Source of the DNA: Desulfurivibrionaceae bacterium
GTDB taxonomy: Bacteria; Desulfobacterota; Desulfobulbia; Desulfobulbales; SURF-16
NCBI GenBank assembly: GCA_046537975.1
Contig: JBKHJR010000003.1
Span: 6,677 to 70,676 of the forward strand
Direction: 5' to 3'
DNA: 64,000 bases
Part shown: piece by piece, positions 2,027 to 61,941 of the stretch
Layout: each line of letters starts with the position of its first letter
How positions within the stretch are numbered: position 1 is the stretch's first letter
Position numbers and translations under genes: made by a program
Notes under the pieces: model-generated
What the model saw: the letters and a program-made list of their open reading frames with translations, nothing else
The model's database searches: none
Told to the model about the DNA's origin: nothing

Positions 2027-2144
2027 GATTTACCGTTTAAGTTTCGAATTACAAATTAGAAATCAGGTATCGGGTGTGCTGGGATGACTATAATTGATAA
2101 TTCGTGCTTCCTGATTTTTAATTAAAAGTAAGGGAGGGGAGTCA

Positions 2145-4747: not shown

Positions 4748-4779
4748 ATAGTTGTTTTCTATTTTATTATTAAAGACAA

Positions 4780-39268: not shown

Positions 39269-40324
39269 ATGAAATGTTTTGGTGAACACTGGGGACTGGA
39301 ATTCAGTCCGGAAGAAATTGCCGCAGCCAGGGCGGAAAACGGTCTGTTATCCATGGAACTGGAGCTCTCCAGGGCCTGCAACCTGCGCTGCATTTACTGC
39401 TACGCCTCTTCCGGACTCCCCCTGGACCAGGAACTGAGCCTGGAAGAGATATACAATGTCGTGGACCAGGCGGTTGACCTCGGGGCCCAAAAAATCATTA
39501 TCCTGGGAGGCGGTGAACCCCTGCTTTACAGCGACCTGTTTGCGGTAATTGATTACCTTAAAAGCAAAGAGGTGACTGTCGACCTCTTCACCAACGGCAC
39601 ACTGATAACCGAAAAGACCGCGACCATGCTTTTTGAGCGCGGGGTCTCGGTGGTGGTCAAGTTGAACAGCCTGAATCCGGAGATCCAGGACCACCTGGCC
39701 GGTAAACCGGGAACCTCTGAAGAAATCATGACCGGTCTGAATCTCCTCCGGGAGGCCGGTTATCCTGATGCCCAACATCCCCTGGGCATTGAGACCGTAA
39801 TCTGCCGGCAGAACTACGACGAACTGCCGGACCTCTGGGCCTGGGCCCGCCGCCGGGGGATTATCCCCTATATGGAGATGATGACCATGCAGGGCAGAGC
39901 CACTAAGCACCCTGAACTGGAAGTCGAATCCGGAAAAGTCAGAGAGATGTTTGAACGCTTGTCCGAACTGGACCGGAAGGAATTTGACCACCACTGGTCC
40001 CCCCACCCCCCTCTGGCTGGTTCCCAGTGCGCCCGCCACGAGTACTCCTGCACAGTTACTGCCAACGGAGAAATATATCCCTGTCCGGGTGTAAGTGTGG
40101 CCGCGGGAAATATAAGGCAGTCCAGGCTGGCCGACATCCTGAAAAACGGAACACCTTTTATCCACTTAAGAGACATACGCCGAAATATCAAAGGGCGTTG
40201 CGCCAGATGCAGTTTAAGCCGGGTCTGTTACGGCTGCCGGGGCCATGCCTATCAGGTTACCGGAGATTACCTGGCGGAAGACCCCTTATGCTGGTTTTCC
40301 GAAGAAGAGTTGACCGGAAAATGA
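39269..40324 (+). CDS. radical SAM enzyme with C-terminal SPASM domain
   Basis: 351 aa. CxxxCxxC (RACNLRCIYC). SPASM pattern CTVTANGEIYPC (CX5GX4C), then CARCSLSRVCYGC and a final Cys (PLCW). Confidence 0.85.
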   Translation: MKCFGEHWGLEFSPEEIAAARAENGLLSMELELSRACNLRCIYCYASSGLPLDQELSLEEIYNVVDQAVDLGAQKIIILGGGEPLLYSDLFAVIDYLKSKEVTVDLFTNGTLITEKTATMLFERGVSVVVKLNSLNPEIQDHLAGKPGTSEEIMTGLNLLREAGYPDAQHPLGIETVICRQNYDELPDLWAWARRRGIIPYMEMMTMQGRATKHPELEVESGKVREMFERLSELDRKEFDHHWSPHPPLAGSQCARHEYSCTVTANGEIYPCPGVSVAAGNIRQSRLADILKNGTPFIHLRDIRRNIKGRCARCSLSRVCYGCRGHAYQVTGDYLAEDPLCWFSEEELTGK

Positions 40325-41616
40325 AGGTGCTGCTGATAAATCCGCCCAACTGCGGCCGGAGTATACCGGAAGAAAAATACGGCATCGACTCCCTGAAACA
40401 GATCTTCCGGGGCGAACCCCTGGCCCTGGAAGAACTGGCCGGCAACCTTCCGGCTCACGAGGTCAAAATTGTTGATCTCAAGGCGGACTCCCGGGACCTG
40501 TCGGAGGTTCTGGACTCTTTCCCCCCGGATATAGCCGGAATTACCGGGGTGACCTGCGAAGCCAACACCATGCTTAAGCTGGCCGGACAGGTGAAGGAGA
40601 CCTGCGGTTCAGTCGTGGTGGTGGGAGGAATCCACGCCAGCTGCGACCCCTGTTTTTTTAACCGGCCCCCGGTGGACTACATCGTCACCGGCCTGGGTAA
40701 AAAGACCTTTGCCGAACTGGCTGCCGCCTTAAAAGAGGGAAGGACAACCACCAATATCCCCGGAGTCGCCGCAGTTACCCCGGGCCGGGAACCGTACTTC
40801 CCGCCCCACCCTTGCAGCCCGGCGGACCTAAGGGATGACCGGCCCCCGGCCTATGACCTGGTCAAGGATTACCGGCAACACTACTATCTGCCCAAACTGG
40901 CTATGAATATGGGTTTCGTGAGCACGGCCTTCGGCTGTCCCTTCAACTGCTCCTTCTGCTGCCTGGGAGCCCAGACCGGGGGCAGATACCTGACCAGATC
41001 CGGGGAGGCGGTTGTCCGGGACATAGAGCTATTGGAGGATATTCCGGTCATAAGGCTCCTGGATGCCAACACCTTTGCCGATCCGGAGCACAGCCTCAAC
41101 CTGTGCACAGCCCTGCAGGAAGCAGGAATAAAAAGACAGTATCTGGCAGACGCCCGCTCCGATTCGGTGGTCAACAACCCGGATCTTTTCCGGCAATGGC
41201 ATGAAGCAGGCCTGCGGGCGGTAATCATCGGCTTTGAGGAAATCGACGATCTGCGCCTTAAGGCCATGAACAAGGCCAATAAGACGGCGGTCAACAACCA
41301 GGCTATTGACATCCTCCACCATACAGGGCTTACTATTGTCGGCGACTTTATTATTTCCCCGGAATACCGGGATGAAGATTTTGACCGTCTTCAAGAATAT
41401 ATAGAAACCAAAAAAATCGACCTGCCCATGGTGACGGTCATGACCCCCCTGCCCGGCACCAGACTTTATCAGGAAGAAAAAGACAGGATCAGCAACCACG
41501 ATCTGGACTACTACACCCTGACCAATGCCGTGCTCCCCACCGGGATGCCGGAAAAAAGGTTCTACCGGAGGTATGCCGATCTGCTCAGGGAAACCCATGC
41601 CGCAGCCCGGGTGTAA
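40321..41616 (+). CDS. B12-binding-domain radical SAM enzyme (class B) #3
   Basis: ATG at 40321 (MKVLLINPP) overlaps the SPASM gene stop (ATGA). B12-type domain (DIAGITGVT...VVVVGGIH) and CxxxCxxC (FGCPFNCSFC). The ORF-track start at 40027 lies inside the previous gene. Confidence 0.85.
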   Translation: MKVLLINPPNCGRSIPEEKYGIDSLKQIFRGEPLALEELAGNLPAHEVKIVDLKADSRDLSEVLDSFPPDIAGITGVTCEANTMLKLAGQVKETCGSVVVVGGIHASCDPCFFNRPPVDYIVTGLGKKTFAELAAALKEGRTTTNIPGVAAVTPGREPYFPPHPCSPADLRDDRPPAYDLVKDYRQHYYLPKLAMNMGFVSTAFGCPFNCSFCCLGAQTGGRYLTRSGEAVVRDIELLEDIPVIRLLDANTFADPEHSLNLCTALQEAGIKRQYLADARSDSVVNNPDLFRQWHEAGLRAVIIGFEEIDDLRLKAMNKANKTAVNNQAIDILHHTGLTIVGDFIISPEYRDEDFDRLQEYIETKKIDLPMVTVMTPLPGTRLYQEEKDRISNHDLDYYTLTNAVLPTGMPEKRFYRRYADLLRETHAAARV

Positions 41617-41644
41617 AGACAAACAAGAACTATTCAGCACCACG

Positions 41645-42799
41645 ATGAACAATGTCTATATAACAGATATCGCCGCCTTCCTGCCCAATAAGCCGGTAAA
41701 TAATGACGACATCGAAAAACTCCTGGGCTTAGGCAACTCCCTGCCCTCCCGGACCAAAAAGATAATCCTTAAAAATAACGGCATAGAAACCAGGCATTAT
41801 GCCATTGATCCGGAAACCAGGGAACTAACCCACACCAACGCCCAACTCGCCGCGGAAGCGGTAGCCAAGCTCAAGCCCTATGCCAATTTCAGCCCGGAGG
41901 ATATCTCCTGCCTGTGCTGCGGCTCTTCCACTCCGGATCAGTTCATGCCCGGTCATGCCTCCATGGTCCATGGCGAATTAAAGGGTTCAAGCTGTGAAAT
42001 CGTCAGCACCGCAGGTGTCTGCCTCTCCGGAATAACCGCCCTCAAGTACGCCTATCTGAACGTGGGAGCCGGACTCACTCCCAATGCCGTGGCCACAGGC
42101 TCGGAACTGGCATCTTCTTATCTCCGGGCCGAATTCCTGGAAAAGGGACCGGACCGGGAAAAAATAGACAAACTGGAGCAAAAGCCGGCCTTGAGTTTTG
42201 AGGCCGACTTCCTGCGCTGGATGCTCTCGGACGGAGCAGGAGCCGCTTTCCTTGGTACAGAACCCCGACCGGACGGGAAAAGCCTCAGAATAGACTGGAT
42301 CGACATTGTCTCCCATGCCCACCGCTATGAACCCTGTATGTATGCCGGAGCCAACAAAGACAAAAACGGCGAGCTCAGAGGCTGGCGGGAGTGCGACTCC
42401 CTCCCCGAAGCCCTGAACCGGGAATTCTTCCCCATAAAACAGGATGCCAGGCTCTTAAACCGCCGGATTCTGACCGCAGTGGTGGATGAAAGCCTGCCCG
42501 GAATAATCAAGGCCCGCAACCTGGAGCCGGACAATATATCCTGGTTCCTGCCCCACTACTCCTCGGAATACTTCCGCATTCCGGTCTTTAATCACCTGAC
42601 GGAAATAGGTTTCACCATTCCCTTGGAGCGCTGGTTTACCAATCTGGCCACCAAAGGCAATACCGGCTCCGCCTCCATCTACATAATCATGGAAGAGCTC
42701 ATGAAAACAGGCCGCCTCAGCCGGGGAGAAACCCTCCTCTGTTTCATTCCGGAAAGCGGCAGGTTCTCCACAGCCTATATGCACCTTACGGTGGTTTAA
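41645..42799 (+). CDS. KAS III-like (FabH/DarB-like) condensing enzyme
   Basis: 384 aa from MNNVYITD. Cys in STAGVCLSG, His in LPHYSS, Asn in GNTGSASI (C-H-N triad). Longer than canonical FabH. Confidence 0.8.
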   Translation: MNNVYITDIAAFLPNKPVNNDDIEKLLGLGNSLPSRTKKIILKNNGIETRHYAIDPETRELTHTNAQLAAEAVAKLKPYANFSPEDISCLCCGSSTPDQFMPGHASMVHGELKGSSCEIVSTAGVCLSGITALKYAYLNVGAGLTPNAVATGSELASSYLRAEFLEKGPDREKIDKLEQKPALSFEADFLRWMLSDGAGAAFLGTEPRPDGKSLRIDWIDIVSHAHRYEPCMYAGANKDKNGELRGWRECDSLPEALNREFFPIKQDARLLNRRILTAVVDESLPGIIKARNLEPDNISWFLPHYSSEYFRIPVFNHLTEIGFTIPLERWFTNLATKGNTGSASIYIIMEELMKTGRLSRGETLLCFIPESGRFSTAYMHLTVV

Positions 42800-45506: not shown

Positions 45507-45743
45507 TTATTGCTGCATCTCCTCTCCGGCGTCCTCAATACTTTCACCGGTTTTGTCAATGGTTTCATCCACTTCCTCACCGGTGTCCTCCATCATTTCC
45601 CGGGTCTTATCCTGGGTCTTTTCGATTGATTCATCAACTTTTTCCCCGGTTTTTTCCGCAGGTCCCTCCTGGTCGCAGGCAGTAAAGCAGGCAATAAGTA
45701 ATAATCCGCCCAACAACGAAATGACTTTTTTCCATGTCTTCAT
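45507..45743 (-). CDS. small acidic repeat lipoprotein
   Basis: ATG at 45743 (MKTWKKVISLLGGLLLIACFTAC) with a GAGGAA RBS. The mature part consists of acidic repeats (GEKVDESIEKT, GEEVDETIDKT, GESIEDAGEE). Confidence 0.6.
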   Translation of the reverse strand: MKTWKKVISLLGGLLLIACFTACDQEGPAEKTGEKVDESIEKTQDKTREMMEDTGEEVDETIDKTGESIEDAGEEMQQ

Positions 45744-45839
45744 GATCCGGTTCCTCTTTTTTTTATTTTCTATCAATTTGGTGGTTATATAAATTATTAT
45801 ACAACAAAAGTTACGGCAGTAAAATCAATAACGGGATAT

Positions 45840-46097
45840 CTAACCTGAAGCCCTAATAAACTCAGCCAGGCTGGAAAGGCTGGCCAGAACCTGGCGGCTG
45901 TTTTCCTCTGAGCCTATGTGGACATTGTACATTTTCTGAACCGCCACCACAATTTCCACGGCATCCAGGGAATCTATTCCCAGGGGGGATTCGGGTCCGA
46001 TCAGGGGGGCATCCAGGTCATAATCTTCCGGAACCTCCCCCGGCAGGTTGCAGATTTCATATATCATCTCCAGGAGTACCCTCTCCAGTTTTTCCAT
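45840..46097 (-). CDS. acyl carrier protein #3
   Basis: 85 aa, LGIDSLDAVEIVV phosphopantetheine site. Confidence 0.85.
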   Translation of the reverse strand: MEKLERVLLEMIYEICNLPGEVPEDYDLDAPLIGPESPLGIDSLDAVEIVVAVQKMYNVHIGSEENSRQVLASLSSLAEFIRASG

Positions 46098-46176
46098 GCT
46101 TCAGACCTCAACGGACTTTGATTTTCGCCGCCCCGTTATCGGGGCTTAAACAACCAATTTTAAGAACTTATCCCTC

Positions 46177-47481
46177 TTATCTGCGGGCAAACAGGGCGGA
46201 CAGGGCCAGCAGCAGGGTAACGGCAAAAAAAGAGAAAAGCAGAGCCAGTTCCCGGCCAATAGAGACCAGACCGGTCTGCCGGACCAATATATCGTGAAAA
46301 GCGGCCAGGCTCCAGCCCAAGGGTGAGATTACACTGATATCCTGCATGAAATCAGGCATGGCGTAAACCGGAACCATGACTCCTCCTATTGCCGCAGCCA
46401 GGACCACGGCGATGGCTCCCAGCATGGAGGCCTGTTCAAAACTGCGGCAGACCGCACCCAGCAGGATCCCGAAGCCTATGGCTGCCAGGGAGCTGCCCAG
46501 GACAATGAGAATAACGGCAAGGGCCTGTCCCGGCTCAATTATAAAAGGGGTGGTTCCCAGCCAGGGCAGCAGAAAACGGCCCAGAATAACGATCAGACCG
46601 AACTGGCAGAAACAGATGATCAGGTAAGCAAACACCTTACCGCCCATAAAGGTAAAAGGGGAAACAGGCAGACTCAAAAGCCTGATCCAGACCCCTGAAC
46701 CCCTTTCCCTCAGCAGGGAACCGGCCAGAGGCACCACCACAAAAAACATACCGAATAGAGCCCAGGCCGGAACATTCTGCTGGACTGCATCGGGGATCTG
46801 CAGGACCCCCCGGCCTGAGGCGGCCCTGCCCTCCAGTCTGATCAGGGGCTCGGCCCCCCAGTCCGGTTCAGCGGAGGTCATTTCCTTCATGGTGTCGGGG
46901 ACGGGATAACCGGCCTCCTGAAAACCGGCCTGCAGTGCAGCGGAAAAGGCCTTTATCTTTTCCTCCACTTCGTACTCCAACAAGACAAGGCGGAAGACAG
47001 TCAGCATGTTCCGGCGAAAGCCCGGAGAAACCGTGGGATCAAAATAGACCGGAAGCTCCGGCAGAGCGGCGGTCTCAATTCTACCCCCTTTATTCATTAC
47101 GCTCTGGACCTGTCTCTTCGCTTGCCGGCTCACGGTCCGGCTTGTTCCCTCTGGTATCAAAAGACAGAGCTGATAACGGCCTTCAGCCACCATCTTTAAG
47201 GCCTTCTTTTTTTCCAGGTCCTGGTTATCCGAACCGCTGATCATCCGGACCCGGCTGTTTTCCTCCAGACGATTTTTAAGCCGTTCCCCCAGTCCCCGGC
47301 GCTCCTGATCAACAAGAAGGACCGAAGTGCTGCTCTCTCCCATTATCTTCAGGACATTCTGCTGAACCAGGGTAATCACCACCACCAGGACCGCGGGCAT
47401 CAGAAAAAGAACCAGCAGCCCGGCCCGGTCCCGCCGGAGCAGAAGGATTTCCTTCCAGATTGTTGTCCCTAACCTAATCAT
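46177..47481 (-). CDS. ABC-2-type transporter permease
   Basis: About 434 aa from MIRLGTTIWKE. N-terminal TM helix, a large extracytoplasmic loop and 5 C-terminal TM helices, as in the ABC-2 family. The start overlaps the ATPase stop by 8 nt. Confidence 0.8.
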   Translation of the reverse strand: MIRLGTTIWKEILLLRRDRAGLLVLFLMPAVLVVVITLVQQNVLKIMGESSTSVLLVDQERRGLGERLKNRLEENSRVRMISGSDNQDLEKKKALKMVAEGRYQLCLLIPEGTSRTVSRQAKRQVQSVMNKGGRIETAALPELPVYFDPTVSPGFRRNMLTVFRLVLLEYEVEEKIKAFSAALQAGFQEAGYPVPDTMKEMTSAEPDWGAEPLIRLEGRAASGRGVLQIPDAVQQNVPAWALFGMFFVVVPLAGSLLRERGSGVWIRLLSLPVSPFTFMGGKVFAYLIICFCQFGLIVILGRFLLPWLGTTPFIIEPGQALAVILIVLGSSLAAIGFGILLGAVCRSFEQASMLGAIAVVLAAAIGGVMVPVYAMPDFMQDISVISPLGWSLAAFHDILVRQTGLVSIGRELALLFSFFAVTLLLALSALFARR

Positions 47482-48229
47482 CGCGGAGTTTCCTGCCGGT
47501 AAAATGGAAAAAAAGTTCACTCAGATCGGCACAGCCGGCCTGCTTTTCCAGTTCAGCCGGAGGGCCGGTGGCTATTATCCTGCCCTGGTCGATAACCGCT
47601 ACCCGGTCACAGTTCTGTTCCGCCTCTTCCATGTAATGGGTGGTATAGATCAGGGTGGTCCCGGTCCGGCGCAGATCCACCAGACGGTCCAGGATCAGCT
47701 GCCTGGACTGGGCGTCGATCCCCACCGTGGGTTCATCCAGGATAAGGAGGCGGGGGCTGTGCAGGAGGGCGGCGGCAAGGTTCAACCTTCTTTTCATGCC
47801 ACCGGAAAAGGAATCCACGGTACGCTCCGCCTGGCCGCTCAGACCGGTGAGCTCAAGACAATCCGCAATCCTGTTATCAAGGTTCCGGCCCTTCAGGCCC
47901 TGGAGCCTGCCGAAAAAGGTCAGGTTTTCCCTGCCGGTCATCTCGGCATAAAGGGCGATGTCCTGGGGAACCAGACCGATATCCTTCTTGAACTTTCCGG
48001 ACTTGCCGGAAAGCCGATTCCCCAGCAGGTTAACTTCTCCGCGGTCCGGCCGCAAGACCCCGGCCAGGATGGAGATCGCCGTGGTCTTGCCCGCGCCGTT
48101 GGGCCCCAGGAGGCCGAAACACTCCCCGGACCTGACGGTCAGATCAATATCGTTTAAGGCCGGCCGGCTGCTCCGGGGATACTGTTTGCTTAAGGATCGG
48201 GCCTCAACTACGTTTTCCTTTTGCTCCAT
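47474..48229 (-). CDS. ABC transporter ATP-binding protein (ABC-2 exporter partner)
   Basis: ATG at 48229 (MEQKENVVEAR). Walker A GPNGAGKTT, signature FSGGMKRRL, Walker B LLILDEPT. The upstream extension to 48373 overlaps the preceding gene. Confidence 0.88.
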   Translation of the reverse strand: MEQKENVVEARSLSKQYPRSSRPALNDIDLTVRSGECFGLLGPNGAGKTTAISILAGVLRPDRGEVNLLGNRLSGKSGKFKKDIGLVPQDIALYAEMTGRENLTFFGRLQGLKGRNLDNRIADCLELTGLSGQAERTVDSFSGGMKRRLNLAAALLHSPRLLILDEPTVGIDAQSRQLILDRLVDLRRTGTTLIYTTHYMEEAEQNCDRVAVIDQGRIIATGPPAELEKQAGCADLSELFFHFTGRKLRDD

Positions 48230-48245
48230 GGATGCCGACTCCGCT

Positions 48246-49265
48246 CTAACCGGTAAAGGAAAGAAGTTCCTGATAGACCCCGGCTTCCCGGCGGGCGCAG
48301 TCTTCCAGGATGTCGGCCATCCTGTCATAGCTGTCTTCCTCCCCTGCCCTGCCCTTGCAGATACGGGCGGCAATCACGGCGAATTCCCGCCAGCGGTCTC
48401 CCGCTTCAGTCAGCCGGCGGGAGCATTGGAGCAGTTTATCATCGGAGTAGATCTCCGCCGCCTCCTGCAAAAAAGCGGCATAAATGAAACGAAAACCCCC
48501 GCCTCCGGTGCCGATCTCCTCCTGCATCCTGACCACCTGCCCCAGGATAAGGGCTGCTTTTTCCCGGCCCGAACGCCGGGGCCATTTTCTCATCCTGGAG
48601 GCCAGGAACCTGATACCCCTCACCCCTATCAAAGGAACAGGGGCCTTCACCATCATTTTGCAGACATGCCTGATCCCGTCCGCCACACCCCTGCTGTATT
48701 CGGCACAGGAAGGTACCCGGTCCGGGAAATACATCCTCCCTTTGGGGGCCAGAGGCCCTTTGGCAAAACGGGCCCTTGCCAGATCCTCTGCGGAGCAGAC
48801 CACCGGGGATGGAAAAACCGGGTCGCTTATGAGATAGTCGCTGCCCCGCCTGCCATACACCACCAGATTGTGGGCATTGAAGTGAAACCGGAAAGAACGG
48901 GGAAAATAGGGGAGCCAGAACACCCCGGTCTGCAGGCCCACCGGTATGTTGGCGGCAAGGGCCCGGTCCAGGGCGGCCATTGCTTTTCCGGGACTGGAAA
49001 ACTTCTCTTCTCTGACCCTGAATCCCACATTGCGGGCAACTCTCTTCAGGATGCTGCCGGCGGCACTGCGATAGGTAATAAGAGGTAGTCCGTTTATATA
49101 AATAAAGGGGAAGTAGCCGAAAAAAAGCCCTCCCCCCATACCGAAGACCATGGCCTCGGAAACGGGAAGTCCCTGATGCTGCATCAGGTTGGCGACCACC
49201 CCGCTCTCGCAGTGGGCGGTCTGCCGGTGATGAAAATCTATGGTTATGTCACCATCCTCACTCAA
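48246..49265 (-). CDS. BtrH_N/DUF4872-like papain-fold protein (putative ACP-dependent acyl transferase)
   Basis: 339 aa. N-terminus HHRQTAHCESGVVANLMQHQGLPVSEAMVFGMGGGLFFGY matches my recollection of the butirosin BtrH N-terminal domain with its catalytic Cys. Confidence 0.6.
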   Translation of the reverse strand: MSEDGDITIDFHHRQTAHCESGVVANLMQHQGLPVSEAMVFGMGGGLFFGYFPFIYINGLPLITYRSAAGSILKRVARNVGFRVREEKFSSPGKAMAALDRALAANIPVGLQTGVFWLPYFPRSFRFHFNAHNLVVYGRRGSDYLISDPVFPSPVVCSAEDLARARFAKGPLAPKGRMYFPDRVPSCAEYSRGVADGIRHVCKMMVKAPVPLIGVRGIRFLASRMRKWPRRSGREKAALILGQVVRMQEEIGTGGGGFRFIYAAFLQEAAEIYSDDKLLQCSRRLTEAGDRWREFAVIAARICKGRAGEEDSYDRMADILEDCARREAGVYQELLSFTG

Positions 49266-49678
49266 TTATCATATACCCCTTTGAGCAGTTCCCAGTTGGC
49301 CAGTTGCTCCGTTGTGACGGAAAAAACAGCGGCATAGCGCTTAAGAATCCCGGGTTTAAGCCTATTGAAAAAAGCCGGCCGCAGATGAAGCTTTACCCGC
49401 CAGCGGGAAAGACCGCAATAACGGGCCAGCAGGGTTGTATCCATCTGATTGACCGCCATGTAATAAAGCAGGGGGCTGGCCCGGCCCTTTTCCACTTTCT
49501 CCCGGGCCCGGGCACTCTCCTTCTCAATAGCCTCCCAGGCCTGGCGGTTCACCACATTCACCGCCTCCCAGCCTTTACTGGGTGTTAATTCATAAGAACC
49601 GTTATCATTGACCGCATAACGTATTTCACTAACCCCTTCGGTAATGCCGGTTTCCTGGGGGACTTCCTCTTTTTTCAT
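49262..49678 (-). CDS. hypothetical protein
   Basis: 138-aa ORF, coupled to its neighbours (4-nt overlap downstream, 2-nt gap upstream). No family recognised. Confidence 0.5.
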   Translation of the reverse strand: MKKEEVPQETGITEGVSEIRYAVNDNGSYELTPSKGWEAVNVVNRQAWEAIEKESARAREKVEKGRASPLLYYMAVNQMDTTLLARYCGLSRWRVKLHLRPAFFNRLKPGILKRYAAVFSVTTEQLANWELLKGVYDN

Positions 49679-49680
49679 TA

Positions 49681-50271
49681 TCAGTCCCGGATTTCCCTCA
49701 CCTTGTCATCATCATTGAAGCGGACTTCAATGGTATCAAACCGGTTCTTCCAGAATTTCCAGACGTCGGAGTCAAGGGAACTGGTTCCGGTTTCCGGCGG
49801 GTGTCCCCAGCTGACCAGGACCGCTTCCCTGGACATGCCCAATACCACGTCCCCTGTTTTGATGGCCTCTTTCTCTTTACCGGTCATGCCTTGGGTCATC
49901 TCCTCAAAACTCCGGGAAGTGAGAAGCCGGTCCATGTAATCCTGGGCGCTTATCCCGGGATGATGCTTGGGATTAAAATAGGCATAGTACGTCTGGTTAT
50001 CCTCCACTCCGGTAAAGGACACCACCGGATAACCGCTTTTCTTGCCCAGCTTGATATTCTTGACCCTGGTCCCCGCCGGGATAAGACGCCCCACCTGGTA
50101 ACCGGTGGACCAGATCTCCCCGTTCTCTATCCAGACATTATGGGCCAGATATTTCCGGGTGTCGGCGGACAGTTCCTTGGTCCACTTCGCCTTTCCGCAC
50201 CCCTGATTGCCCAGGATTAACAGAAATGCTGCGGCCACCAGAATGAGATTTGCTAAAAGTTTACTTTTCAT
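49681..50271 (-). CDS. hypothetical lipoprotein (C-terminal SmpA/OmlA-like segment)
   Basis: 196 aa. Lipobox LGNQGC. C-terminal GDVVLGMSREAVLVSWGHP resembles BamE/SmpA-type lipoproteins. Confidence 0.55.
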   Translation of the reverse strand: MKSKLLANLILVAAAFLLILGNQGCGKAKWTKELSADTRKYLAHNVWIENGEIWSTGYQVGRLIPAGTRVKNIKLGKKSGYPVVSFTGVEDNQTYYAYFNPKHHPGISAQDYMDRLLTSRSFEEMTQGMTGKEKEAIKTGDVVLGMSREAVLVSWGHPPETGTSSLDSDVWKFWKNRFDTIEVRFNDDDKVREIRD

Positions 50272-50355
50272 AATTACCTCCTCAACTGTTTTTGTTCAGA
50301 GTCATATCTCTCATACAGTTTATAGTTCAAGGAGTACAATTTCCAGTCCAAATAC

Positions 50356-51843
50356 TCAGGGCTTATCTCTGCCGGGCTCACTATTAAGCTCCGGGGCCCG
50401 GGAGCCCAGTCTCCTGTTGCTCCTGGCAAATTTCAGGAAATCCAGGCCGTTTTTCAGAAACCGCCGCCAGCTGTCCGGGGAGTGATAAAGCATGGCCGCA
50501 TACCCCAGGAGAACCCGGGGCCTCTTGAAGTGCTTTCTGTAAAAATCAATGAACAGTTCATCCAGACGCTCGCGGCTCAAGCCTTCAGGAATAAAGAGAA
50601 AACTCATACAGTCCATGCCCTGCCAGTCTTCGGTAAACTCCCCCAGTTCATGGATCTTATTATACAAGGGGGAGCCGGGAAAAGGAGTGAACTTGGCCAG
50701 GTTAAAATCATCGATGGGCAGGGAAAAGACATAATCCATGCTCTTTTTTATGCTCTCCTCGGTTTCCCCGGGCAGTCCCATCATCAAAAGTCCTTTGGTG
50801 CGGATACCGTGTTTCTTGATGAGCCGGATCTTTTCGGCCAGCATTCCCAGGTCGGCATTCTGCCGGTGCCTGGCCAGGAGATTCTCATCTCCGGTTTCAA
50901 TCCCCAGACTGATCATCCAGCAGCCCCCCTTCTTCATCAGGGCCAGCAGCTCAGAATCGATGTGTTCCGCCCTGACCGCGCAGTTAAAGGTCATGCCCAG
51001 GGGGTGCTCGATCAACTTGGTCATGAGCTCTTCCACCCGTTCCCGTTTGAAAGTGAACTGGTCATCGTAGAAGTTGATATGTTTGATATTGAAGCGCTGC
51101 TTCAGATGCAGCATGTGTTGATAAAGATATTCGGCGGAGTTGTAGCGGAAAGTGCGGCGGAAAACCGAACGGTCGCAGTAGCTGCAGGCATAAGGACAGC
51201 CCCGGCTGGAGGTACAGCTGGTGTTGGGGGTCCGGGGGTAGTTGAAGATGGGCAGGGTGTAGGTCTCCGGATAACCGGCCAGCTTCTCATAGGCCGGAAA
51301 GGGCAAAGAGTCCAGATCCAGCTGGGGCTCCCGGTAGCCGCTAAAGAATGGTTCCCCCTCCCTGCGGAAGATGATCCCCGGGATCTTTTCCAATTCTCCG
51401 CCCTCGCTTCTTATGAGTTCCCTGAGGGTCTCCTCCCCCTCACCGGCAACGATAACATCCACCTCCGGATAGTCGGTCAGAAGCTGCTCCCTGAGAGCGG
51501 AGACATGGGGTCCCCCGAAAACCGTCTTGATTCCGGGCATTATTCCGCGGGCCATTGCCGCCAGCCTGACCCCGTCCAGGAAACTGGAGGTGGTGCAGCT
51601 GAAACCGATAAAGGCGGGCTTATGGGAGACAAGGTACTCCCTGATAAGCCTGTCGCTCTCCGGCCTGGCATAACAGTCGATTATATCAGCCCTGATTCCT
51701 TCCTGTTCCAGGTAAGAGGCAATGCCGGCCAGCCCCAGAGGAGGCATGATATTTGCCATCCGGGAAATATCATGCCCGGCGGCTGCAGCCTGATAACCCA
51801 GGGGGTGGACCAGCAGTATCCGGCGGTAATCCAGTTTATTCAT
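50356..51843 (-). CDS. B12-binding-domain radical SAM enzyme (class B) #4
   Basis: 495 aa. B12-type domain (FIGFSCTTSS...TVFGGPHVS) and CxxxCxxC (RGCPYACSYC). Confidence 0.85.
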   Translation of the reverse strand: MNKLDYRRILLVHPLGYQAAAAGHDISRMANIMPPLGLAGIASYLEQEGIRADIIDCYARPESDRLIREYLVSHKPAFIGFSCTTSSFLDGVRLAAMARGIMPGIKTVFGGPHVSALREQLLTDYPEVDVIVAGEGEETLRELIRSEGGELEKIPGIIFRREGEPFFSGYREPQLDLDSLPFPAYEKLAGYPETYTLPIFNYPRTPNTSCTSSRGCPYACSYCDRSVFRRTFRYNSAEYLYQHMLHLKQRFNIKHINFYDDQFTFKRERVEELMTKLIEHPLGMTFNCAVRAEHIDSELLALMKKGGCWMISLGIETGDENLLARHRQNADLGMLAEKIRLIKKHGIRTKGLLMMGLPGETEESIKKSMDYVFSLPIDDFNLAKFTPFPGSPLYNKIHELGEFTEDWQGMDCMSFLFIPEGLSRERLDELFIDFYRKHFKRPRVLLGYAAMLYHSPDSWRRFLKNGLDFLKFARSNRRLGSRAPELNSEPGRDKP

Positions 51844-51899
51844 GTCCGATTATACTCTTCCTGTCTTTTTATAAGTTTTTTTATCCCCGAAACCTGCGG

Positions 51900-52985
51900 C
51901 TATCCATCTGTCCCGGCCTCGATTAACAGGGCTGCATTTATACCGCCAAAACCGGAGTTGCAGGTCAGGATAGAAGGATATTGAAGGGCCTGTTCCCTTA
52001 CTCCGGAAACCGGCCAATGCTCTTTTTCCGGAACAGCCAGTCCCGCAGTGGGCGGAATCTTTCCCTCCCGGAGGGCCTTAACCGCCAGAGCTGCTTCAAT
52101 AACCCCGGCCGCTCCCAGGGTGTGGCCGATACTTCCCTTGACTGAATGAATCGGGACTCCTCCCTCAAACAGGCTATCCATAGCCACCATTTCCATGGCA
52201 TCATTATAAACCGTCCCGGTACCATGGGCATTGACCGCCCCCACTTTTCGGCTGCCATACTCAATTGCCTGCTCGACGGAACTAATCAGGCCCCCGGCCT
52301 CCCGGCAGGGAGCGGTAATATGCCGGGCATCGCAGGCAGCCCCCCAGCCCTGCAACAGAGGGGAGGAGCTATCCCCTGCAGTCAGGAGAAGATAACCGGC
52401 CCCTTCCCCCAGGGACAAACCGTCCCGATCCCGGTCAAAAGGCCGGGCCCCCTCCCGGGACAGGGCATGCAGCCTGGAAAAACCGGCCTGAACAAATCTG
52501 CCTGCCAGATCAAGGCCCACCACCAAAACAGACTGGGCCTCCCCGCTTTTGATCTGCTGGGCCGCGTTTATAACAGCCAGGGTCCCTGAGGCGCAGGCGG
52601 CACTGACCGTGAGCGGCCGGCCCACGGTACCCGCCTTCCCGGCGATGATCCCGCCCAGATCCCAGGGCTGGCCCTCCCAATGGTCCGGTTCCGGAGCAAG
52701 GAGCTCATCAGAGGCACCTTTGGTGGTGGCTGCAACCAGACCGGTATTTTCAGGGAGAACGGGCAGATCAGCCATAAGCCGGTTCAACAGGTGGTCCAAC
52801 CTCTCCCCGCTACCCGGACTCCCCTCCAGATCAGGGATCAAGGCAGCCGGCCAACGGGCCAGATCCTCATCCAGACCCTTCCGGGTAATGGCGGATCGCC
52901 CCTGCCTAAGTCCCTGCCAGGTGCTTTCCAGATCCCCCAGCGCCGTCACCACACCGGCAGCCTCAATCGTTATCTTACCAGTCAT
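51900..52985 (-). CDS. beta-ketoacyl-ACP synthase #3 (short, 361 aa)
   Basis: Active Cys VSAACASGTLA, AHGTGTVYND and GSIGHTLGAAG. First gene of the minus-strand arm. Confidence 0.88.
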   Translation of the reverse strand: MTGKITIEAAGVVTALGDLESTWQGLRQGRSAITRKGLDEDLARWPAALIPDLEGSPGSGERLDHLLNRLMADLPVLPENTGLVAATTKGASDELLAPEPDHWEGQPWDLGGIIAGKAGTVGRPLTVSAACASGTLAVINAAQQIKSGEAQSVLVVGLDLAGRFVQAGFSRLHALSREGARPFDRDRDGLSLGEGAGYLLLTAGDSSSPLLQGWGAACDARHITAPCREAGGLISSVEQAIEYGSRKVGAVNAHGTGTVYNDAMEMVAMDSLFEGGVPIHSVKGSIGHTLGAAGVIEAALAVKALREGKIPPTAGLAVPEKEHWPVSGVREQALQYPSILTCNSGFGGINAALLIEAGTDG

Positions 52986-53091: not shown

Positions 53092-53323
53092 CAGTTTTTC
53101 TTGCTTACCACCTCAGCATTCATTAAATTCACTTCTCAATCTTATCTTGACAGGGTCAGTTAAATTGCTCAAAAATAATATCAAAGATCAATTTTAGGGA
53201 TCTGTCGCTATTCAAAATTCTCGATCAGATATATTTGCGCAAAAACTCGGACAAATGGTTGGATATCCGGCGTGAGCCGGCTTAGGGATACCACCAGTAA
53301 TTAAATGGAGGAGCAGGACAGTC

Positions 53324-57040: not shown

Positions 57041-57125
57041 GCCGAAGTGGTGGAATTGGTAGACACGCTGTCTTGAGGGGGCAGTGGGGAAACCCGTGCC
57101 GGTTCAAATCCGGCCTTCGGCACCA
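57041..57125 (+). tRNA. tRNA-Leu (anticodon GAG), long variable arm, encoded CCA
   Basis: GCCGAAGTGGTGGAATTGGTAGACAC... with anticodon stem-loop CTGTC-TTGAGGG-GGCAG, a variable arm and T-arm CCGGTTCAAATCCGG. Confidence 0.88.
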
Positions 57126-57456
57126 AAAATACATCCGGGAACTTCCACAAAGTTCCAGCAAGCCCGCATCCGGCAACGGACAGTGGGCTTTTTCTTTTCC
57201 CCTGCCTTCCAGTAAATTCCATTGACATCCGGGTATAAAAGCGGGTATAAAATAGGGTACGTGGTTAAGGACACGAATACCCGCTAAGGATTTCAACTTC
57301 ACCATCCTTTAATTTACCTTTTTCAAGCTGTTATCCGATAATTTATTCTTCCAGGATAATGGTGAAGAACGATACATCCTCAACTCTCAAGAGGTTCATT
57401 ATCAATGAAGCGGGTATAAATAAGAGGAACCTAATACCCACTATGGAGGACATTAA

Positions 57457-58692
57457 ATGTCCAAGCTCACTGCCGCCCACATCCGCAACGCAAAAACCCA
57501 GGATAAGAACTATAAGCTTTCGGACGGTCACGGGCTATACTTCCATGTTGCCAAATCCGGCAAGAAGACCTGGAGGTATCGCTTCAAGATAAGCGGCAAG
57601 GAGTCCACTTTTAATCTTGGGGAATATCCTCAGATGTCCCTTGAGCAGGCCAGGGCCGCCCGCATGGAGGCCAGAGAACTTGTCAAACAGGGAATTAACC
57701 CTTCTCAGAAACGCAGAGAGGAAAAACAGACTCTCATTGAAGAGGAACAGGCAAACCGGGAAAACAAGAAAAACACCTTCGCCTTTATCGCCATGGAATG
57801 GATCGGCCAGCAGCAGGAACGGTGGAGCCGGGACCATGCCAACGCTGTCCTGGCCACCCTGAAAGCCGACGCCTTCCCTCTTATTGGCCACCATCCTGTT
57901 GACACCATAAGCCCACCCATGGTCCTGAATGTCCTCAGGCGCATTGAGAACAGAGGAGCCCTGGAGATCGCCTCCAAGGTGCTGCAAAGGATGAACGCTG
58001 TTTTCCGTTACTCCGTCCAGACCGGCCGGGCGACCTATAACCCGGCTGCCGACATGCGGGGAGTGCTCAAAAAGCGCAAGGTCAACCACCGGCCTGCCAT
58101 TTCCAGAGAGGATTTACCTCAGTTCCTGAAAGACCTTTCCCAGGGGGACATCCACACCACCACCAAGCTTGCCCTCCAGTTTGTTATACTGACAGCCACC
58201 AGAAGCGGAGAGGTCCGGGGAGCTACCTGGGACGAAATAAACCTGAAAGAAAAGACCTGGAAAATTCCTGCCGACCGGATGAAGATGGAAACCCCGCATA
58301 CTGTACCCTTGTCACGGCAAACCTCAGCAATTCTTGAACGAGTTGGTCGTCTTTACGGCCAAAAGGGTTACCTCTTCCCCGGTATCAGTGATCATGACAA
58401 GCCCCTGTCGGAAAATACAATGCTGTATGCCATGTACCGGATAGGTTATCACGGCAAGGGGACGGTTCACGGCTTCCGGGCCACTTTTTCCACCATTGCC
58501 AATGAGTCAGGTTTTAACAGTGACGTGATTGAAAAGGCCCTTGCCCATGAAGAGAGAAACAGGGTCCGGGCCGCCTATCACCGAAGCGAATACCTGGAGC
58601 AGCGCCGGGAACTGATGCAATGGTGGGCAGATCTGCTGGATCAGCTTGAGCATGGCGCTGAAATTGTCCCTATTAGAGAACAAATTAATTAA
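57457..58692 (+). CDS. int: P4-type tyrosine integrase (DUF4102 N-terminal arm-binding domain)
   Basis: 411 aa. N-terminus LTAAHIRNAKTQDKNYKLSDGHGLYFHVAKSGKKTWRYRF. Catalytic residues in TATRSGE, HGFRATF and AYHRSEY. Confidence 0.92.
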   Translation: MSKLTAAHIRNAKTQDKNYKLSDGHGLYFHVAKSGKKTWRYRFKISGKESTFNLGEYPQMSLEQARAARMEARELVKQGINPSQKRREEKQTLIEEEQANRENKKNTFAFIAMEWIGQQQERWSRDHANAVLATLKADAFPLIGHHPVDTISPPMVLNVLRRIENRGALEIASKVLQRMNAVFRYSVQTGRATYNPAADMRGVLKKRKVNHRPAISREDLPQFLKDLSQGDIHTTTKLALQFVILTATRSGEVRGATWDEINLKEKTWKIPADRMKMETPHTVPLSRQTSAILERVGRLYGQKGYLFPGISDHDKPLSENTMLYAMYRIGYHGKGTVHGFRATFSTIANESGFNSDVIEKALAHEERNRVRAAYHRSEYLEQRRELMQWWADLLDQLEHGAEIVPIREQIN

Positions 58693-58740
58693 ATAGAGTT
58701 CACCAAGAAGAATAGCTTTTTTGCCAATAAGGAAAATAGT

Positions 58741-59409
58741 ATGCAGGATGAATACATACCTCTTGAAGAGGCTGCAAAGATGACAGGCCGGGATGAACAG
58801 CAGTTGCTCCGAGGCGCACTGAATGACAACTATAATTTATATCAATTTCAAGATTCACTTACTCTTACCTCTTGTGGCTGGATAAAGGTCCCTTTAAAAG
58901 GAATTGCGAAGATTTATACAGGAGCTTGGGAAGCAAAAGCCCCTGTATATACAAAAGATTCAGAAGGTAACTTTGTTATGGATTATGAGTTGGTTGAATT
59001 GGAATACCCTCATATATCCGATGAATCTCCTTATAAAGAAACAGATATTACCTGGAATAGGAGATCACTGCACCTTAACCTGGAAGATATAAAAAGAATC
59101 AAGAGAGAAACTTTGATGGATGGTCTTCACTCTTCCAGATCAGAATCACAGACGGACAATACCCCGCCTGTTTCTATAAATTATGAACTTATGAAGGTCC
59201 ATGTATATGAACCAGAGGAGTTGATAATCGGTGTAGAGGCTTGGAATGCACTATATGGAGACGAGCATCCAGATGGTGTGAAAATTAGAAAACCCGACAT
59301 AAGTAAATGGTTGCATAATAACTATCCTCATTTAGGTAATGAAACTGTTAAGAGAATAGCGACTGTTGTCAATCCCTTTAAGAAGGGAGGTGCAACCCGT
59401 TCCGACTAA
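58741..59409 (+). CDS. hypothetical island protein (possible N-terminal HTH)
   Basis: 222-aa ORF in an AT-rich segment. N-terminal IPLEEAAKMTGRDEQQLL resembles an excisionase/MerR-type HTH. No family recognised. Confidence 0.5.
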   Translation: MQDEYIPLEEAAKMTGRDEQQLLRGALNDNYNLYQFQDSLTLTSCGWIKVPLKGIAKIYTGAWEAKAPVYTKDSEGNFVMDYELVELEYPHISDESPYKETDITWNRRSLHLNLEDIKRIKRETLMDGLHSSRSESQTDNTPPVSINYELMKVHVYEPEELIIGVEAWNALYGDEHPDGVKIRKPDISKWLHNNYPHLGNETVKRIATVVNPFKKGGATRSD

Positions 59410-59586
59410 TTTTTTGAAATCAAACTCACCCACCAATTAACTGATTAATATAACAATAAAAAATAACAACCACCCCACCGGTTCCAAAAACCGTTTTCTG
59501 AACCTACCTACCTATTTTTTCTAAATTTTTATTTTTATAGTCCCTCCAGATCCACGGCAAACCTTAACCGTTCATGGAGGCAATGT

Positions 59587-59808
59587 ATGACTAAGAAATA
59601 TAACAACACCGATAGCAGACTAATAAGGCTGCCTGAAGTCGAACACAAGATTGGTTACAAAAAGTCAAAAATTTACAATATGATCAAACAAGGACTCTTT
59701 CCTTCTCCCGTTGAAATAGGTCCAAGAGCCCGTGCCTGGATTGAGGCAGAGGTGGTGGAATGGATAAACACTCGCCCCCGAGCCGGGAAAGTTGAGGAAG
59801 TGAGGTAA
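59587..59808 (+). CDS. alpA: AlpA-family phage transcriptional regulator / excisionase
   Basis: 73 aa. RLIRLPEVEHKIGYKKSKIYNMIKQGLFPSPVEIGPRARAWIEAEVVEWI is a typical AlpA/Phage_AlpA HTH. Confidence 0.88.
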   Translation: MTKKYNNTDSRLIRLPEVEHKIGYKKSKIYNMIKQGLFPSPVEIGPRARAWIEAEVVEWINTRPRAGKVEEVR

Positions 59809-59854
59809 TGTTTGAGATCAACAAAGAAGGCCGCGATCCGGGCAGGGAGGGATC

Positions 59855-61624
59855 ATGGAATTGAGTAAGGAAACCCCGGCAGCGAGCGGCAAACCGGGGC
59901 AGGACAAAAATATATCTACTTATTATTTTAACCCCTTCGACCCTGCAAGTCAAGCGCAGACCATCCATTCAGCACTTGGCGGCAGGAAAAACCAGGACGG
60001 ATCTTTTCATTGTCATTGCCCGGCACATGCCGACCGGAACCCCTCCCTGCACGTCTCCATCAAAGGCGATAAGCTGCTTGTGAATTGCCTGGCAGGTTGC
60101 AACCAGGAGGCCGTTATCCGGGCCCTCAAAGACCGCAATTTGTGGCCGACAGGCGATAACCGGGCCAATAGCTCTGACTCCTCCCCTCTTCCTCCCGGAC
60201 CTCCCGGAATACCTCAAAAGTGGTACAAAGCCCAATACGTAGCACACTGGACCTACCGTGACAAACAAGGGCAAGTAATAGGGCATGTTGTCCGGTTTGA
60301 AGACCCGGACGGTAAGCAGGTCATTCCATTTTTTAAACAGGACAGCGGCGGCAAATGGAAGGCTGGAGCAGCAGAGCAGCCCAGGCCGCTTTATGGGCTT
60401 CACAAGCTGGCGGGAAGCTCAATCGACATGCCTGTGCTAATTGTTGAAGGCGAAAAGGTCGCCGATGCCGCTGCGCGGCTCCTGCCGGATTATGTATGTA
60501 TAACCTGGCCAGGCGGCTCAAAAGCAGCCAGTAAGGCTGATTGGAGCTCCCTGCAGCAAAGAGACAAAATTTATATCTGTCCCGATGCTGATGACCCCGG
60601 GCTCAAGGTAGCCCGGGAAATCTCACAACTTTGCTTTAACCAACAAAAAGAACGAAAGTACGATCTCAAGACGATAAAACCGCCCAGGGTGATAAAGCCA
60701 CCCGAAAACGTGGCGGAAGGCTGGGACCTGGCCGACGCAAAGACGGAAGGCTGGACCGGGGATCAGGTCAAGGAGTTGATCGGACAAGCCGGAGCGGGCG
60801 GGAAGGAATCATCTATCCCAGCCGGGATTACCGGGTCGGAGCTTCTGCAAAAAGAATTTCCCGAGCCACGATGGGCGGTAAAGGGAATCCTACCAGAAGG
60901 CTTAAATATCCTCGCGGGCAAACCGAAACAGGGTAAATCAATAATATCAGCCAATCTTGCTATCGCTATCACTCTTGGAGGAAAATCCCTGGGAAGTATC
61001 CCAGTTGACCAGGGAGCAGTCGTTTACCTGGCCCTGGAGGATACCCCAAGGCGTCTTAAGTCACGTATACAACAGATGATGACGTATAGCGAAGGGAGGT
61101 TGGACGGCCTCACCTTATTCACGGAATGGCCGCGTATGGGAAATGGCGGCGTATCAGCCCTGGATAATCTCATTCAAAAGACCGATAACCTCCGGCTTGT
61201 CATCATAGATACTTTGGCCCTGTTTAAGCCGGTATCCGGTAATGGTAACAGTAATTTGTACGCGGATGATTACGCGGTTGTAAGCCGGATTAAGAAACTG
61301 GCCGATAAACATGGTATCTCCATTCTATTGATACACCACCTTAGAAAAATGGCCTCTGACGACGTATTCGATACGTTCAGTGGAACCTTAGGCTTGACCG
61401 GGGCGGCAGACGGCTTGCTTGCTCTCACCAAGAAGGGAACCCATTCAGTATTGCATATCACTGGCCGAGATGTCGAACCGGCAGAGATGGCCCTTGAGTT
61501 CAATACCAAATTGTTATCCTGGCGGTTGCTGGGTGATGCCGGGGAAGTACAGACGACCAAAAATAAACAGTTGATATTCGATGCCCTCAAAGCAGCAGAA
61601 GGCCCCTCGGTCCGAAGGAAATAA
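59855..61624 (+). CDS. primase-helicase-type replication protein (Zn-finger/toprim-like N-terminus + RepA/AAA_25-like ATPase); 3' end apparently frameshifted
   Basis: 589 aa. CHCPAHADRNPSLHV zinc motif, VLIVEGEKVADAA (toprim-like), Walker A GKPKQGKS, Walker B-like LVIIDTL. The ORF ends at 61624, but a wHTH-like continuation lies in the -1 frame. Confidence 0.8.
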   Translation: MELSKETPAASGKPGQDKNISTYYFNPFDPASQAQTIHSALGGRKNQDGSFHCHCPAHADRNPSLHVSIKGDKLLVNCLAGCNQEAVIRALKDRNLWPTGDNRANSSDSSPLPPGPPGIPQKWYKAQYVAHWTYRDKQGQVIGHVVRFEDPDGKQVIPFFKQDSGGKWKAGAAEQPRPLYGLHKLAGSSIDMPVLIVEGEKVADAAARLLPDYVCITWPGGSKAASKADWSSLQQRDKIYICPDADDPGLKVAREISQLCFNQQKERKYDLKTIKPPRVIKPPENVAEGWDLADAKTEGWTGDQVKELIGQAGAGGKESSIPAGITGSELLQKEFPEPRWAVKGILPEGLNILAGKPKQGKSIISANLAIAITLGGKSLGSIPVDQGAVVYLALEDTPRRLKSRIQQMMTYSEGRLDGLTLFTEWPRMGNGGVSALDNLIQKTDNLRLVIIDTLALFKPVSGNGNSNLYADDYAVVSRIKKLADKHGISILLIHHLRKMASDDVFDTFSGTLGLTGAADGLLALTKKGTHSVLHITGRDVEPAEMALEFNTKLLSWRLLGDAGEVQTTKNKQLIFDALKAAEGPSVRRK

Positions 61625-61941
61625 CTGAGATTACAGGACTGAAAAGCGGGTACATACGAAAGACACTACCATACCTTGCCAAGGAAGGGAGTATCAGGAA
61701 GGAAGACCGGGGTAAGTATACATATAGTGGGAACAATGGGAACATTGGGTACAAAGAGAACAACGGGAACAATGGGTACAACAGCCAAGAAAAAAGAGAT
61801 TGTTCCCATAACCTGGCAGATGTTCCCTTGGATGGGTACAACCGTGAGGCCAGTCATGGCAAGGATTCAGGGGTATTTGTACCCAATGTACCCGATGTTC
61901 CCAATGAGGAAGAAGAAGAATACACGGAGATTATAATATGA
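61567..61941 (+). pseudogene. -1-frame continuation of the primase-helicase gene (wHTH-like segment + Asn/Gly-rich tail), no own start codon
   Basis: Hand translation of the frame with codon starts at 61567+3n: ...PLGPKEITEITGLKSGYIRKTLPYLAKEGSIRKEDRGKYTYSGNNGNIGYKENNGNNGYN...VPNVPDVPNEEEEEYTEIII*. That is 124 stop-free codons. Its TGA (61939-61941) overlaps the ATG of the next gene (ATGA). The junction is at a C4 run, 61603-61606. Confidence 0.55.
61729..61902. repeat. iteron-like array: six tandem 9-mers GGGWACAAN, dispersed and tandem inverted copies TGTWCCC
   Basis: GGGAACAAT GGGAACATT GGGTACAAA GAGAACAAC GGGAACAAT GGGTACAAC (61729-61782). TGTTCCC at 61801 and 61821, GGGTACA at 61834. 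TGTACCCAA TGTACCCGA TGTTCCCAA at 61878-61904. Confidence 0.8.

Follow-up and report, generated by a model that had tools for sequence, protein, structure and literature searches.

The window analysed here is a 64,000-nucleotide stretch of a Desulfurivibrionaceae bacterium (assembly GCA_046537975.1, contig JBKHJR010000003.1, positions 6,677 to 70,676). Eight co-oriented genes on its minus strand, at nucleotides 45840–52985, form an operon encoding, in order, a ketosynthase (KS), a B12-binding radical S-adenosylmethionine enzyme (rSAM), a lipoprotein-like protein, a 138-residue protein, a BtrH-like protein, an ATP-binding cassette (ABC) ATPase, an ABC-2 permease and an acyl carrier protein (ACP). 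The open reading frame (ORF) listing and the Pfam matches confirm this order, which had been given in a first-pass annotation of the same sequence. With a probability of roughly 0.6, the minus arm is an accessory module (KS, DarG, DarH, ABC-2 exporter and ACP) accompanying the dialkylresorcinol (DAR) enzymes in flexirubin/arcuflavin-type clusters for aryl-polyene pigment lipids. It reveals no new pathway type, the module being ordinary for flexirubin and dialkylresorcinol clusters; its value is that of a pointer, which makes the BtrH-like protein, DarH, a candidate for the enzyme that forms the ester between aryl polyene and resorcinol in flexirubins.

Family assignment and synteny of the module

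DarH matches the NCBIfam model NF053550 ("BtrH-related acyltransferase DarH") with 479.6 bits, against a cut-off of 300, its residues 10–334 aligning with positions 1–324 of the 325-position profile. The 25 homologues in the alignment, which come from Desulfobacterota, Myxococcota and Bacteroidota, all match this model as well. With the Pfam hidden Markov models, residues 18–149 are assigned to BtrH_N (PF14399, E = 2.7e-49) and residues 160–334 to DUF4872 (PF16169, E = 6.2e-58), the two families to which the protein had been attributed from its sequence. The word "acyltransferase" in the NCBIfam name rests on homology to BtrH. The 138-residue protein encoded upstream, earlier listed as unknown, scores 148.5 bits with the DarG family model NF053536 (cut-off 70) and 141.6 bits with the flexirubin_DarG equivalog model NF053545 (cut-off 170); because it passes the first and fails the second, it is classified by sequence as a member of the DarG family, but not as the flexirubin orthologue.

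The same block of genes is listed in two publications. Beside darA/darB of Azoarcus sp. BH72 are located darD (conserved hypothetical), darE ("BtrH-like peptidase"), darF (ABC ATPase), darI (ABC permease), darC (ACP) and darJ (KS) (Schöner et al., PMC3949708). In flexirubin clusters, the gene letters are G for a hypothetical protein, H for a protein with a BtrH N-terminal domain, I for the ABC ATPase, J for the ABC permease, C for the ACP and D for a KS (a 2026 taxonomic paper, PMC12968099). Because both papers list this block and the NCBIfam models are passed, the operon is a catalogued accessory module of dialkylresorcinol/flexirubin-type clusters and not an undescribed combination. The earlier remark that no described lipid pathway using this enzyme family was known is thus out of date.

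For the search for DarH relatives, one genome per species was scanned, and 437 species genomes were found to contain one. The closest relative (84% identity) is from a metagenome-assembled genome (MAG) of Desulfobia sp., followed by proteins from other Thermodesulfobacteriota (54–61%) and then from Myxococcota and many Bacteroidota (49–53%). The window proteins were mapped onto 80 retrieved loci, and the counts that follow use the 55 of these in which each flank extends for 6 kb or more. DarG is encoded directly upstream of DarH in all 55, and near DarH there is an ABC ATPase in 50, an ABC-2 permease in 49, DarA in 44 and a KS related to the operon KS in 47. In 50 loci, the 10 kb around DarH on either side include a gene for a DarB-family ketosynthase. 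The gene order of the DarG–DarH module is conserved across three phyla. Of the expected synteny with KS and rSAM genes, the KS part stands, while the rSAM is restricted to a subset of the Desulfobacterota. In one of these, Desulfuromonas carbonis, the whole set is oriented in one direction, with tyrosine ammonia-lyase, ApeI/ApeP-like dehydratases, LolA and MMPL genes, and the cluster also encodes a 141-residue protein, a BtrH_N/DUF4872 protein, an ABC-2 transporter, an ACP and a DarB-like protein.

In the window, the cluster consists of two convergent arms with a GGDEF gene between them. The plus-strand arm ends in a DarB-family ketosynthase, about 3 kb from the minus-strand operon, which scores 554.4 bits with the StlD/DarB model NF005293 (cut-off 450) and 457.9 bits with the resorcinol_DarB model (below its cut-off of 550). 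The same arm encodes a FlxY-like aryl-CoA ligase (430.7 bits), pairs of a KS and a half-KS, a GT2-DUF2062 protein, LpxL- and PlsC-type acyltransferases and a TIGR04072 "lipid biosynthesis B12-binding/radical SAM protein"; the cluster as a whole has four B12-rSAM paralogues. Given the DarB-family ketosynthase and the gene content of the plus arm, the whole region is classified, on sequence grounds, as the Desulfobacterota version of a flexirubin/aryl-polyene-type cluster.

Predicted fold and putative active site of DarH

A model of DarH was calculated with AlphaFold2 from 25 homologues (predicted local distance difference test score, pLDDT, of 90; predicted template-modelling score of 0.89). 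When it is compared with the PDB using Foldseek, the only full-length matches are AziU3, CtaG and CcbD, with E-values of 1e-8 to 1e-12 and template-modelling (TM) scores of 0.61–0.73 (entries 9qvj, 7yn1 and 8gs1_B). The E-value is 2.6e-12 for AziU3, 1.7e-10 for CtaG (TM-scores 0.67/0.73) and 3.8e-9 for CcbD, the matches including the complex of CcbD with its peptidyl carrier protein (PCP). Searches of PDB sequences with phmmer and with a 25-sequence profile gave no relevant relative of DarH, and the kinship with CtaG and CcbD, as judged from the model, is visible at the level of the fold only. CtaG, BtrH and AsbE have a papain-like N-terminal domain, a helical C-terminal domain, a Cys-His-Asp triad, carrier-protein-bound donors and a ping-pong mechanism (PMC12865890). 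DarH is likewise predicted to be composed of a papain-fold N-terminal domain and a helical C-terminal domain, and is a putative carrier-protein-dependent acyltransferase. For the DarG/DarH pair, found in 437 species-level genomes, the predicted structure provides a confident link to carrier-protein-dependent Cys-His-Asp ligases.

The HCESG motif, in which the first-pass annotation had placed a putative nucleophilic cysteine, comprises residues 18–22 of DarH; His18, Cys19 and Glu20 are invariant in the 25 aligned sequences, as are His132 and Asp148. The distances along the chain are 113 residues between Cys19 and His132 and 16 between His132 and Asp148, compared with 117 (Cys11 to His128) and 16 (His128 to Asp144) in CtaG, for which the triad positions were taken from the names of deposited variants. 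Invariance and CtaG-like spacing both support the proposed nucleophile, and Cys19, His132 and Asp148 are regarded as the putative triad. A second segment, EEIGTGGGGFR (residues 249–259, in the helical DUF4872 domain), is also invariant and is conserved as strongly as the triad; it may be where the phosphopantetheine arm or the acceptor binds.

The papain-like fold also brings a peptidase to mind. In such a case DarH would be a C39-like cysteine peptidase that processes a peptide secreted through the neighbouring ABC transporter. BtrH_N falls in the papain-like clan, close to the C39 and C70 peptidases, for which an association with transporters is common (PMC10318531), and Foldseek matches a C39-like peptidase (3erv) to DarH, albeit to the N-terminal domain alone (E = 1.3e-4). 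The best structural matches are, however, the full-length two-domain ligases. The exporter is of the ABC-2 type (DrrAB/NodIJ-like) and differs from the bacteriocin exporters that have a fused peptidase, there is no evident gene for a precursor peptide, and the genomic context is invariably one of polyketides or lipids, which together make a peptidase function very improbable.

The AlphaFold2 model of DarG (pLDDT 82) contains a beta-hairpin, a long helix and a helical bundle like that of Cro/C1. Foldseek returned weak matches to the helix-turn-helix (HTH) domains of SinR and Cro, and the Pfam match to HTH_26 is also weak (E = 0.059). An AziU2-like role for DarG was considered because the AziU2–AziU3 complex is the top structural match of DarH, and was rejected: DarG has no Foldseek match with E ≤ 0.001, and its best matches (E 0.001–0.1) are NGO0477 and Cro/C1 HTH folds, with AziU2 not among them. 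From model and synteny, DarG would be an obligate small partner of DarH, either a regulator with an HTH fold or a structural subunit.

Proposed function and alternatives

In the proposed mechanism, an acyl group would move from the phosphopantetheine arm of the ACP onto Cys19 of DarH in a ping-pong reaction, and Cys19 would hand it to a nucleophile of a free acceptor. The acceptor would be a hydroxyl on the ring that DarB makes, a dialkylresorcinol or cyclohexanedione, giving the flexirubin-defining ester, and the ABC-2 transporter (DrrAB/NodIJ-like) would take the hydrophobic product from the cytoplasmic membrane toward the outer membrane. Transfer from ACP to acceptor followed by export, already put forward in the first-pass annotation, is a reasonable mechanism because of the predicted CtaG/CcbD-type fold, the invariant triad and the conservation of ACP and exporter; it is inferred from these features. 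The evidence for a carrier-protein thioester as the donor is circumstantial and consists of the dedicated ACP with its DSL site, conserved in the operon. As to the acceptor, the module accompanies the enzymes of the DAR ring, and what defines flexirubins and arcuflavin is the ester that links an aryl-polyene acid to this ring. The ring hydroxyl of a DAR or cyclohexanedione is therefore tentatively proposed as the acceptor, with DarH as the ester-forming enzyme.

Several observations weigh against this assignment. In the one proposal published so far, formation of the flexirubin ester bond is assigned to another protein, FlxW (PMC3992019). The characterised acyltransferases of the CtaG/BtrH fold all form amides, not esters (PMC12865890, PMC10318531), AziU3 has the same fold and is no acyltransferase, and the triad geometry of DarH is taken from alignment and spacing, not from coordinates. 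Literature searches found no biochemistry or genetics of DarH or DarG and no studies of the transporter; a locus-tag search found no paper on mutants of the flexirubin G, H, I or J genes, and no work turned up on the function that DUF4872 or BtrH-like proteins have in pigment clusters. In 5 of the 55 loci the module occurs without DarB within 10 kb, and in the locus of the closest relative (L001) the plus-arm genes of the window do not follow the operon. Finally, a tblastn search of the 64-kb window with flavobacterial DarA gave no match (best E = 0.61), while the same query matched 53 of the 80 loci; because DarA was not found, the head group here may not be a resorcinol.

The minus arm behaves as a separable unit, since all that L001 shares with the window is the gap gene and the operon from KS to ACP. 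In that locus an insertion of about 5 kb separates the gap gene from the KS (807–6062, compared with 53106–53319 of the window), and its DNA past the ACP is unrelated to that of the window; the operon is kept and both junctions differ. In three Myxococcota MAGs (L053, L055 and L065), DarG, DarH, ABC, ACP and KS genes are followed by a homologue of the first rSAM of the window (55–56% identity). In the two with full flanks, L055 and L065, DarB is absent within 10 kb; therefore, the module can exist without an adjacent DarB. ORF calling in the high-GC flanks of L065 yielded no Pfam match outside the module.

A role of DarH inside DAR assembly has been weighed as well. DarH would shuttle a fatty or beta-ketoacyl chain between the housekeeping ACP of fatty acid synthase or coenzyme A on one side and DarC, the dedicated ACP feeding DarB, on the other, or would release an ACP-bound intermediate by hydrolysis, and the ABC-2 transporter would export the free DAR or cyclohexanedione. 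The module stays with darAB even if the polyene genes lie elsewhere: in Azoarcus the dar locus (azo0283–0293) is separate from the arc loci (PMC3949708), and two Chitinophaga-labelled contigs (L044 and L072) carry DarB, DarG, DarH and ABC genes. The presence of a KS and an ACP in the module suggests building or handling of the DarB substrate, and the DarH fold suits any transfer from a thioester to a nucleophile, water included. We know of no BtrH-like gene, however, in the darABC clusters of Pseudomonas. As darA and darB are, moreover, sufficient for DAR formation in E. coli (PMC3992019), DarH is not required for DAR synthesis. The transfer catalysed by known members of the fold is to a second substrate and not between carriers, with CtaG as a partial exception in that both of its substrates are carrier-bound (PMC12865890). 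A function within DAR assembly is considered unlikely, although it is the strongest of the three alternatives.

The amine acceptor suggested in the first-pass annotation is not favoured by the genomic context and is rather improbable. DarH would then N-acylate an amine-containing head group or envelope component, for instance an amino-sugar lipid, and the product would be exported. This would be in keeping with the characterised acyltransferases of the fold, of which BtrH, CcbD, AsbE and CtaG acylate amines (PMC12865890, PMC10318531), with the galactosamine-phosphate-glycerol head group of Xenorhabdus aryl-polyene lipids (bioRxiv 10.1101/2020.12.19.423268) and with the GT2-DUF2062 glycosyltransferase encoded in the plus arm. 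The association of the module across the 55 loci is, however, with DarB and DarA, whose product is a phenolic head group free of nitrogen, and the operon encodes no amine-forming enzyme (ATP-grasp ligase or aminotransferase). Neither flexirubin nor arcuflavin is known to contain an amide, and no BtrH-like gene is known from the ape clusters of Xenorhabdus and E. coli that make the amino-sugar lipid.

Returning to the ring, DarA and the HpnR-like B12-rSAM adjoining DarB show a complementary distribution among the DarB-containing loci: DarA alone is present in 51, the rSAM alone in 4, both in none and neither in 8, a sample that is small and phylogenetically clustered, so that the pattern is a lead and not a result. 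The four rSAM-only loci are L006, L007, L008 and L012, and the window (39269–42799) is a fifth such case. The HpnR-like rSAM next to DarB may be an anaerobic replacement for the aromatase step of DarA, or may modify the ring in another way; B12-radical-SAM enzymes together with the lack of DarA in the window hint at an anaerobic variant of the chemistry in Desulfobacterota. In its furthest-reaching form, which we consider doubtful, DarH would be the ester-forming enzyme of flexirubins and, within the CtaG/BtrH class of papain-like ligases, the first member to act by O-acylation and in building a lipid. In the present cluster it would join an rSAM-tailored polyketide acyl-ACP to a ring made by DarB and finished without DarA, possibly by the B12-rSAM next to DarB (40027–41616), yielding an undescribed envelope lipid of relatives of sulfate reducers.

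Organisation of the operon and comparison with known systems

The coordinates of the operon genes and of the DarB-family ketosynthase are collected in Table 1. The translation start of the ATPase is most likely the ATG at 48229, 16 nt past the DarH stop, rather than the TTG at 48373, and that of the permease most likely the ATG at 47480, which gives a 7-nt overlap with the end of the ATPase gene, rather than the GTG at 47520. Read directly from the DNA, the successive spacings from the lipoprotein gene to the permease gene are 2, −4 (an ATGA shared by DarG and DarH), 16 and −7 nt, which makes translational coupling likely from the lipoprotein gene through the permease gene. Two long plus-strand ORFs overlapping the operon (47958–49088 and 50482–51984) are unsupported and were set aside as antisense reading frames. 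No RNA runs containing the sequence were found; it is present in metagenomic DNA runs alone, from a microbial mat and a hypersaline lake.

Table 1. Genes of the minus-strand operon, from head to end, and the ketosynthase terminating the plus-strand arm (window coordinates).
Feature	Coordinates	Strand	Assignment
KS, short FabF-type, 361 residues, operon head	51900..52985	-	Pfam ketoacyl-synt N and C domains
Class-B (B12-binding) radical SAM enzyme, rSAM4	50356..51843	-	Pfam B12-binding 1.5e-24, Radical_SAM 1.2e-23
Lineage-specific secreted/lipoprotein-like protein, 196 residues	49681..50271	-	N-terminal signal sequence ending ...LGNQGC
DarG-family protein, 138 residues	49262..49678	-	NCBIfam NF053536 DarG_fam
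DarH, BtrH-related putative acyltransferase	48246..49265	-	NCBIfam NF053550; Pfam BtrH_N + DUF4872
ABC transporter ATP-binding subunit, DrrA/NodI-like	47474..48229	-	Pfam ABC_tran 1e-33
ABC-2 type permease, exporter membrane subunit	46177..47480	-	Pfam ABC2_membrane_3 3.5e-31, ABC2_membrane 6.8e-20
Stand-alone ACP, 85 residues, DarC position	45840..46097	-	Pfam PP-binding 5.9e-05; DSL phosphopantetheine site
StlD/DarB-family ketosynthase, end of convergent plus-strand arm	41525..42799	+	NF005293

On its upstream side the operon is divergent from gap-pgk-tpi-secG, and on its downstream side it is followed by a gene for a small acidic lipoprotein and then by the GGDEF gene. The former (45507–45776, minus strand), just 3' of the ACP gene, is an 89-residue lipoprotein-like ORF with the lipobox ...IACFTAC and repeated segments rich in Glu and Asp. 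It has a promoter-like site of its own (TTTACT-16-TATAAT, 45823–45796), and probably lies outside the operon. At the far end of the window, a tRNA-Leu(GAG) gene (57041–57125) is followed by genes for a tyrosine integrase (57457–58692), a Toprim/AAA_25 primase-helicase-like protein (59855–61624) and an HTH protein, and the GC content falls to about 0.44–0.45 over 57041–64000; this region is probably a mobile element integrated at the tRNA.

The operon KS has the complete set of Cys131, His222, His254, Lys283 and His288, conserved in the alignment. Its best NCBIfam models, AmcF and PRK09185, are both below cut-off. It is about 30% identical to the KS encoded after the permease in Bacteroidota loci and is the counterpart of the darJ (Azoarcus) or "D" (flexirubin clusters) KS, which elsewhere follows the module. 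The ATPase scores 247 bits with the drrA model TIGR01188, below cut-off. The ACP carries a GIDSLDAVE motif, and ACPs in the same position in Desulfobacterota loci are 58–62% identical to it.

No NCBIfam model is passed by rSAM4 (HpnJ 187, cut-off 578), which has 4545 homologues and shows about 70% identity across Desulfobacterota. Homologues are located within the aryl-polyene-like clusters of Geomonas paludis and D. carbonis, together with tyrosine ammonia-lyase, ApeI/ApeP-like dehydratases, LolA, MMPL and KS/chain-length factor genes. Its gene lies between KS and DarG in L001, L002 and L006 only, whereas L008, L012 and L083 (D. carbonis) have it at another place of the cluster; rSAM4 would appear to be a conserved tailoring enzyme of the Desulfobacterota cluster version that happens to sit in the minus arm. 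The 196-residue lipoprotein-like protein has no Pfam or NCBIfam family. A search of 5.8 billion proteins gave, besides the protein itself, 4 homologues, each with 69% identity or more, and among the 80 loci the protein is found in L001 only. With so few close homologues and one related locus, it was rejected as a conserved component of the pathway and appears to be a recent lineage-specific insertion.

Compared with butirosin biosynthesis in Bacillus circulans, the similarity between BtrH and DarH is at the level of domain models only: both contain BtrH_N and DUF4872, have a nucleophilic (in DarH putatively so) Cys near the amino-terminus and are accompanied by a dedicated stand-alone carrier protein. 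Among the annotated ORFs between 27 and 57 kb of the window, however, there is no BtrJ-type ATP-grasp ligase, BtrG-type partner or aminoglycoside gene, and while the acceptor of BtrH is a sugar amine, that of DarH would likely be a lipid phenol or enol. CtaG (closthioamide), CcbD (celesticetin/lincosamide) and AziU3 (azinomycin) share with the DarH model the bipartite fold over the full length at 13–17% sequence identity. The nucleophile of CcbD, which has been crystallised with its PCP donor, is Cys19, as is the putative one of DarH. CtaG and CcbD form amides in peptide or amino-sugar pathways, whereas AziU3 acts with AziU2 in aziridine formation.

The closest systems are the modules of Azoarcus and of the flexirubin clusters of Flavobacteriia and Chitinophaga, with which the window shares protein families above the NCBIfam cut-offs and the order DarG, DarH, ATPase, permease, ACP. 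The window DarH is 50–52% identical to the flavobacterial proteins and, as in flexirubin clusters, a DarB-family KS and a FlxY-like ligase are encoded in the same cluster. In contrast to these modules, the window has its KS at the operon head instead of after the ACP, a B12-rSAM and a lineage-specific lipoprotein are inserted ahead of DarG, and DarA was not found in it; its DarG and DarB pass subfamily models only, remaining under the cut-offs of the flexirubin- and DAR-specific equivalogs. A further difference is the host, an anaerobe related to sulfate reducers. The plus arm and rSAM4 are of the type found in the aryl-polyene ("ladderane-like") clusters of Desulfobacterota with a TIGR04072 B12-rSAM, from which the window differs in being split into two arms, with rSAM4 moved into the arm that contains DarG and DarH.

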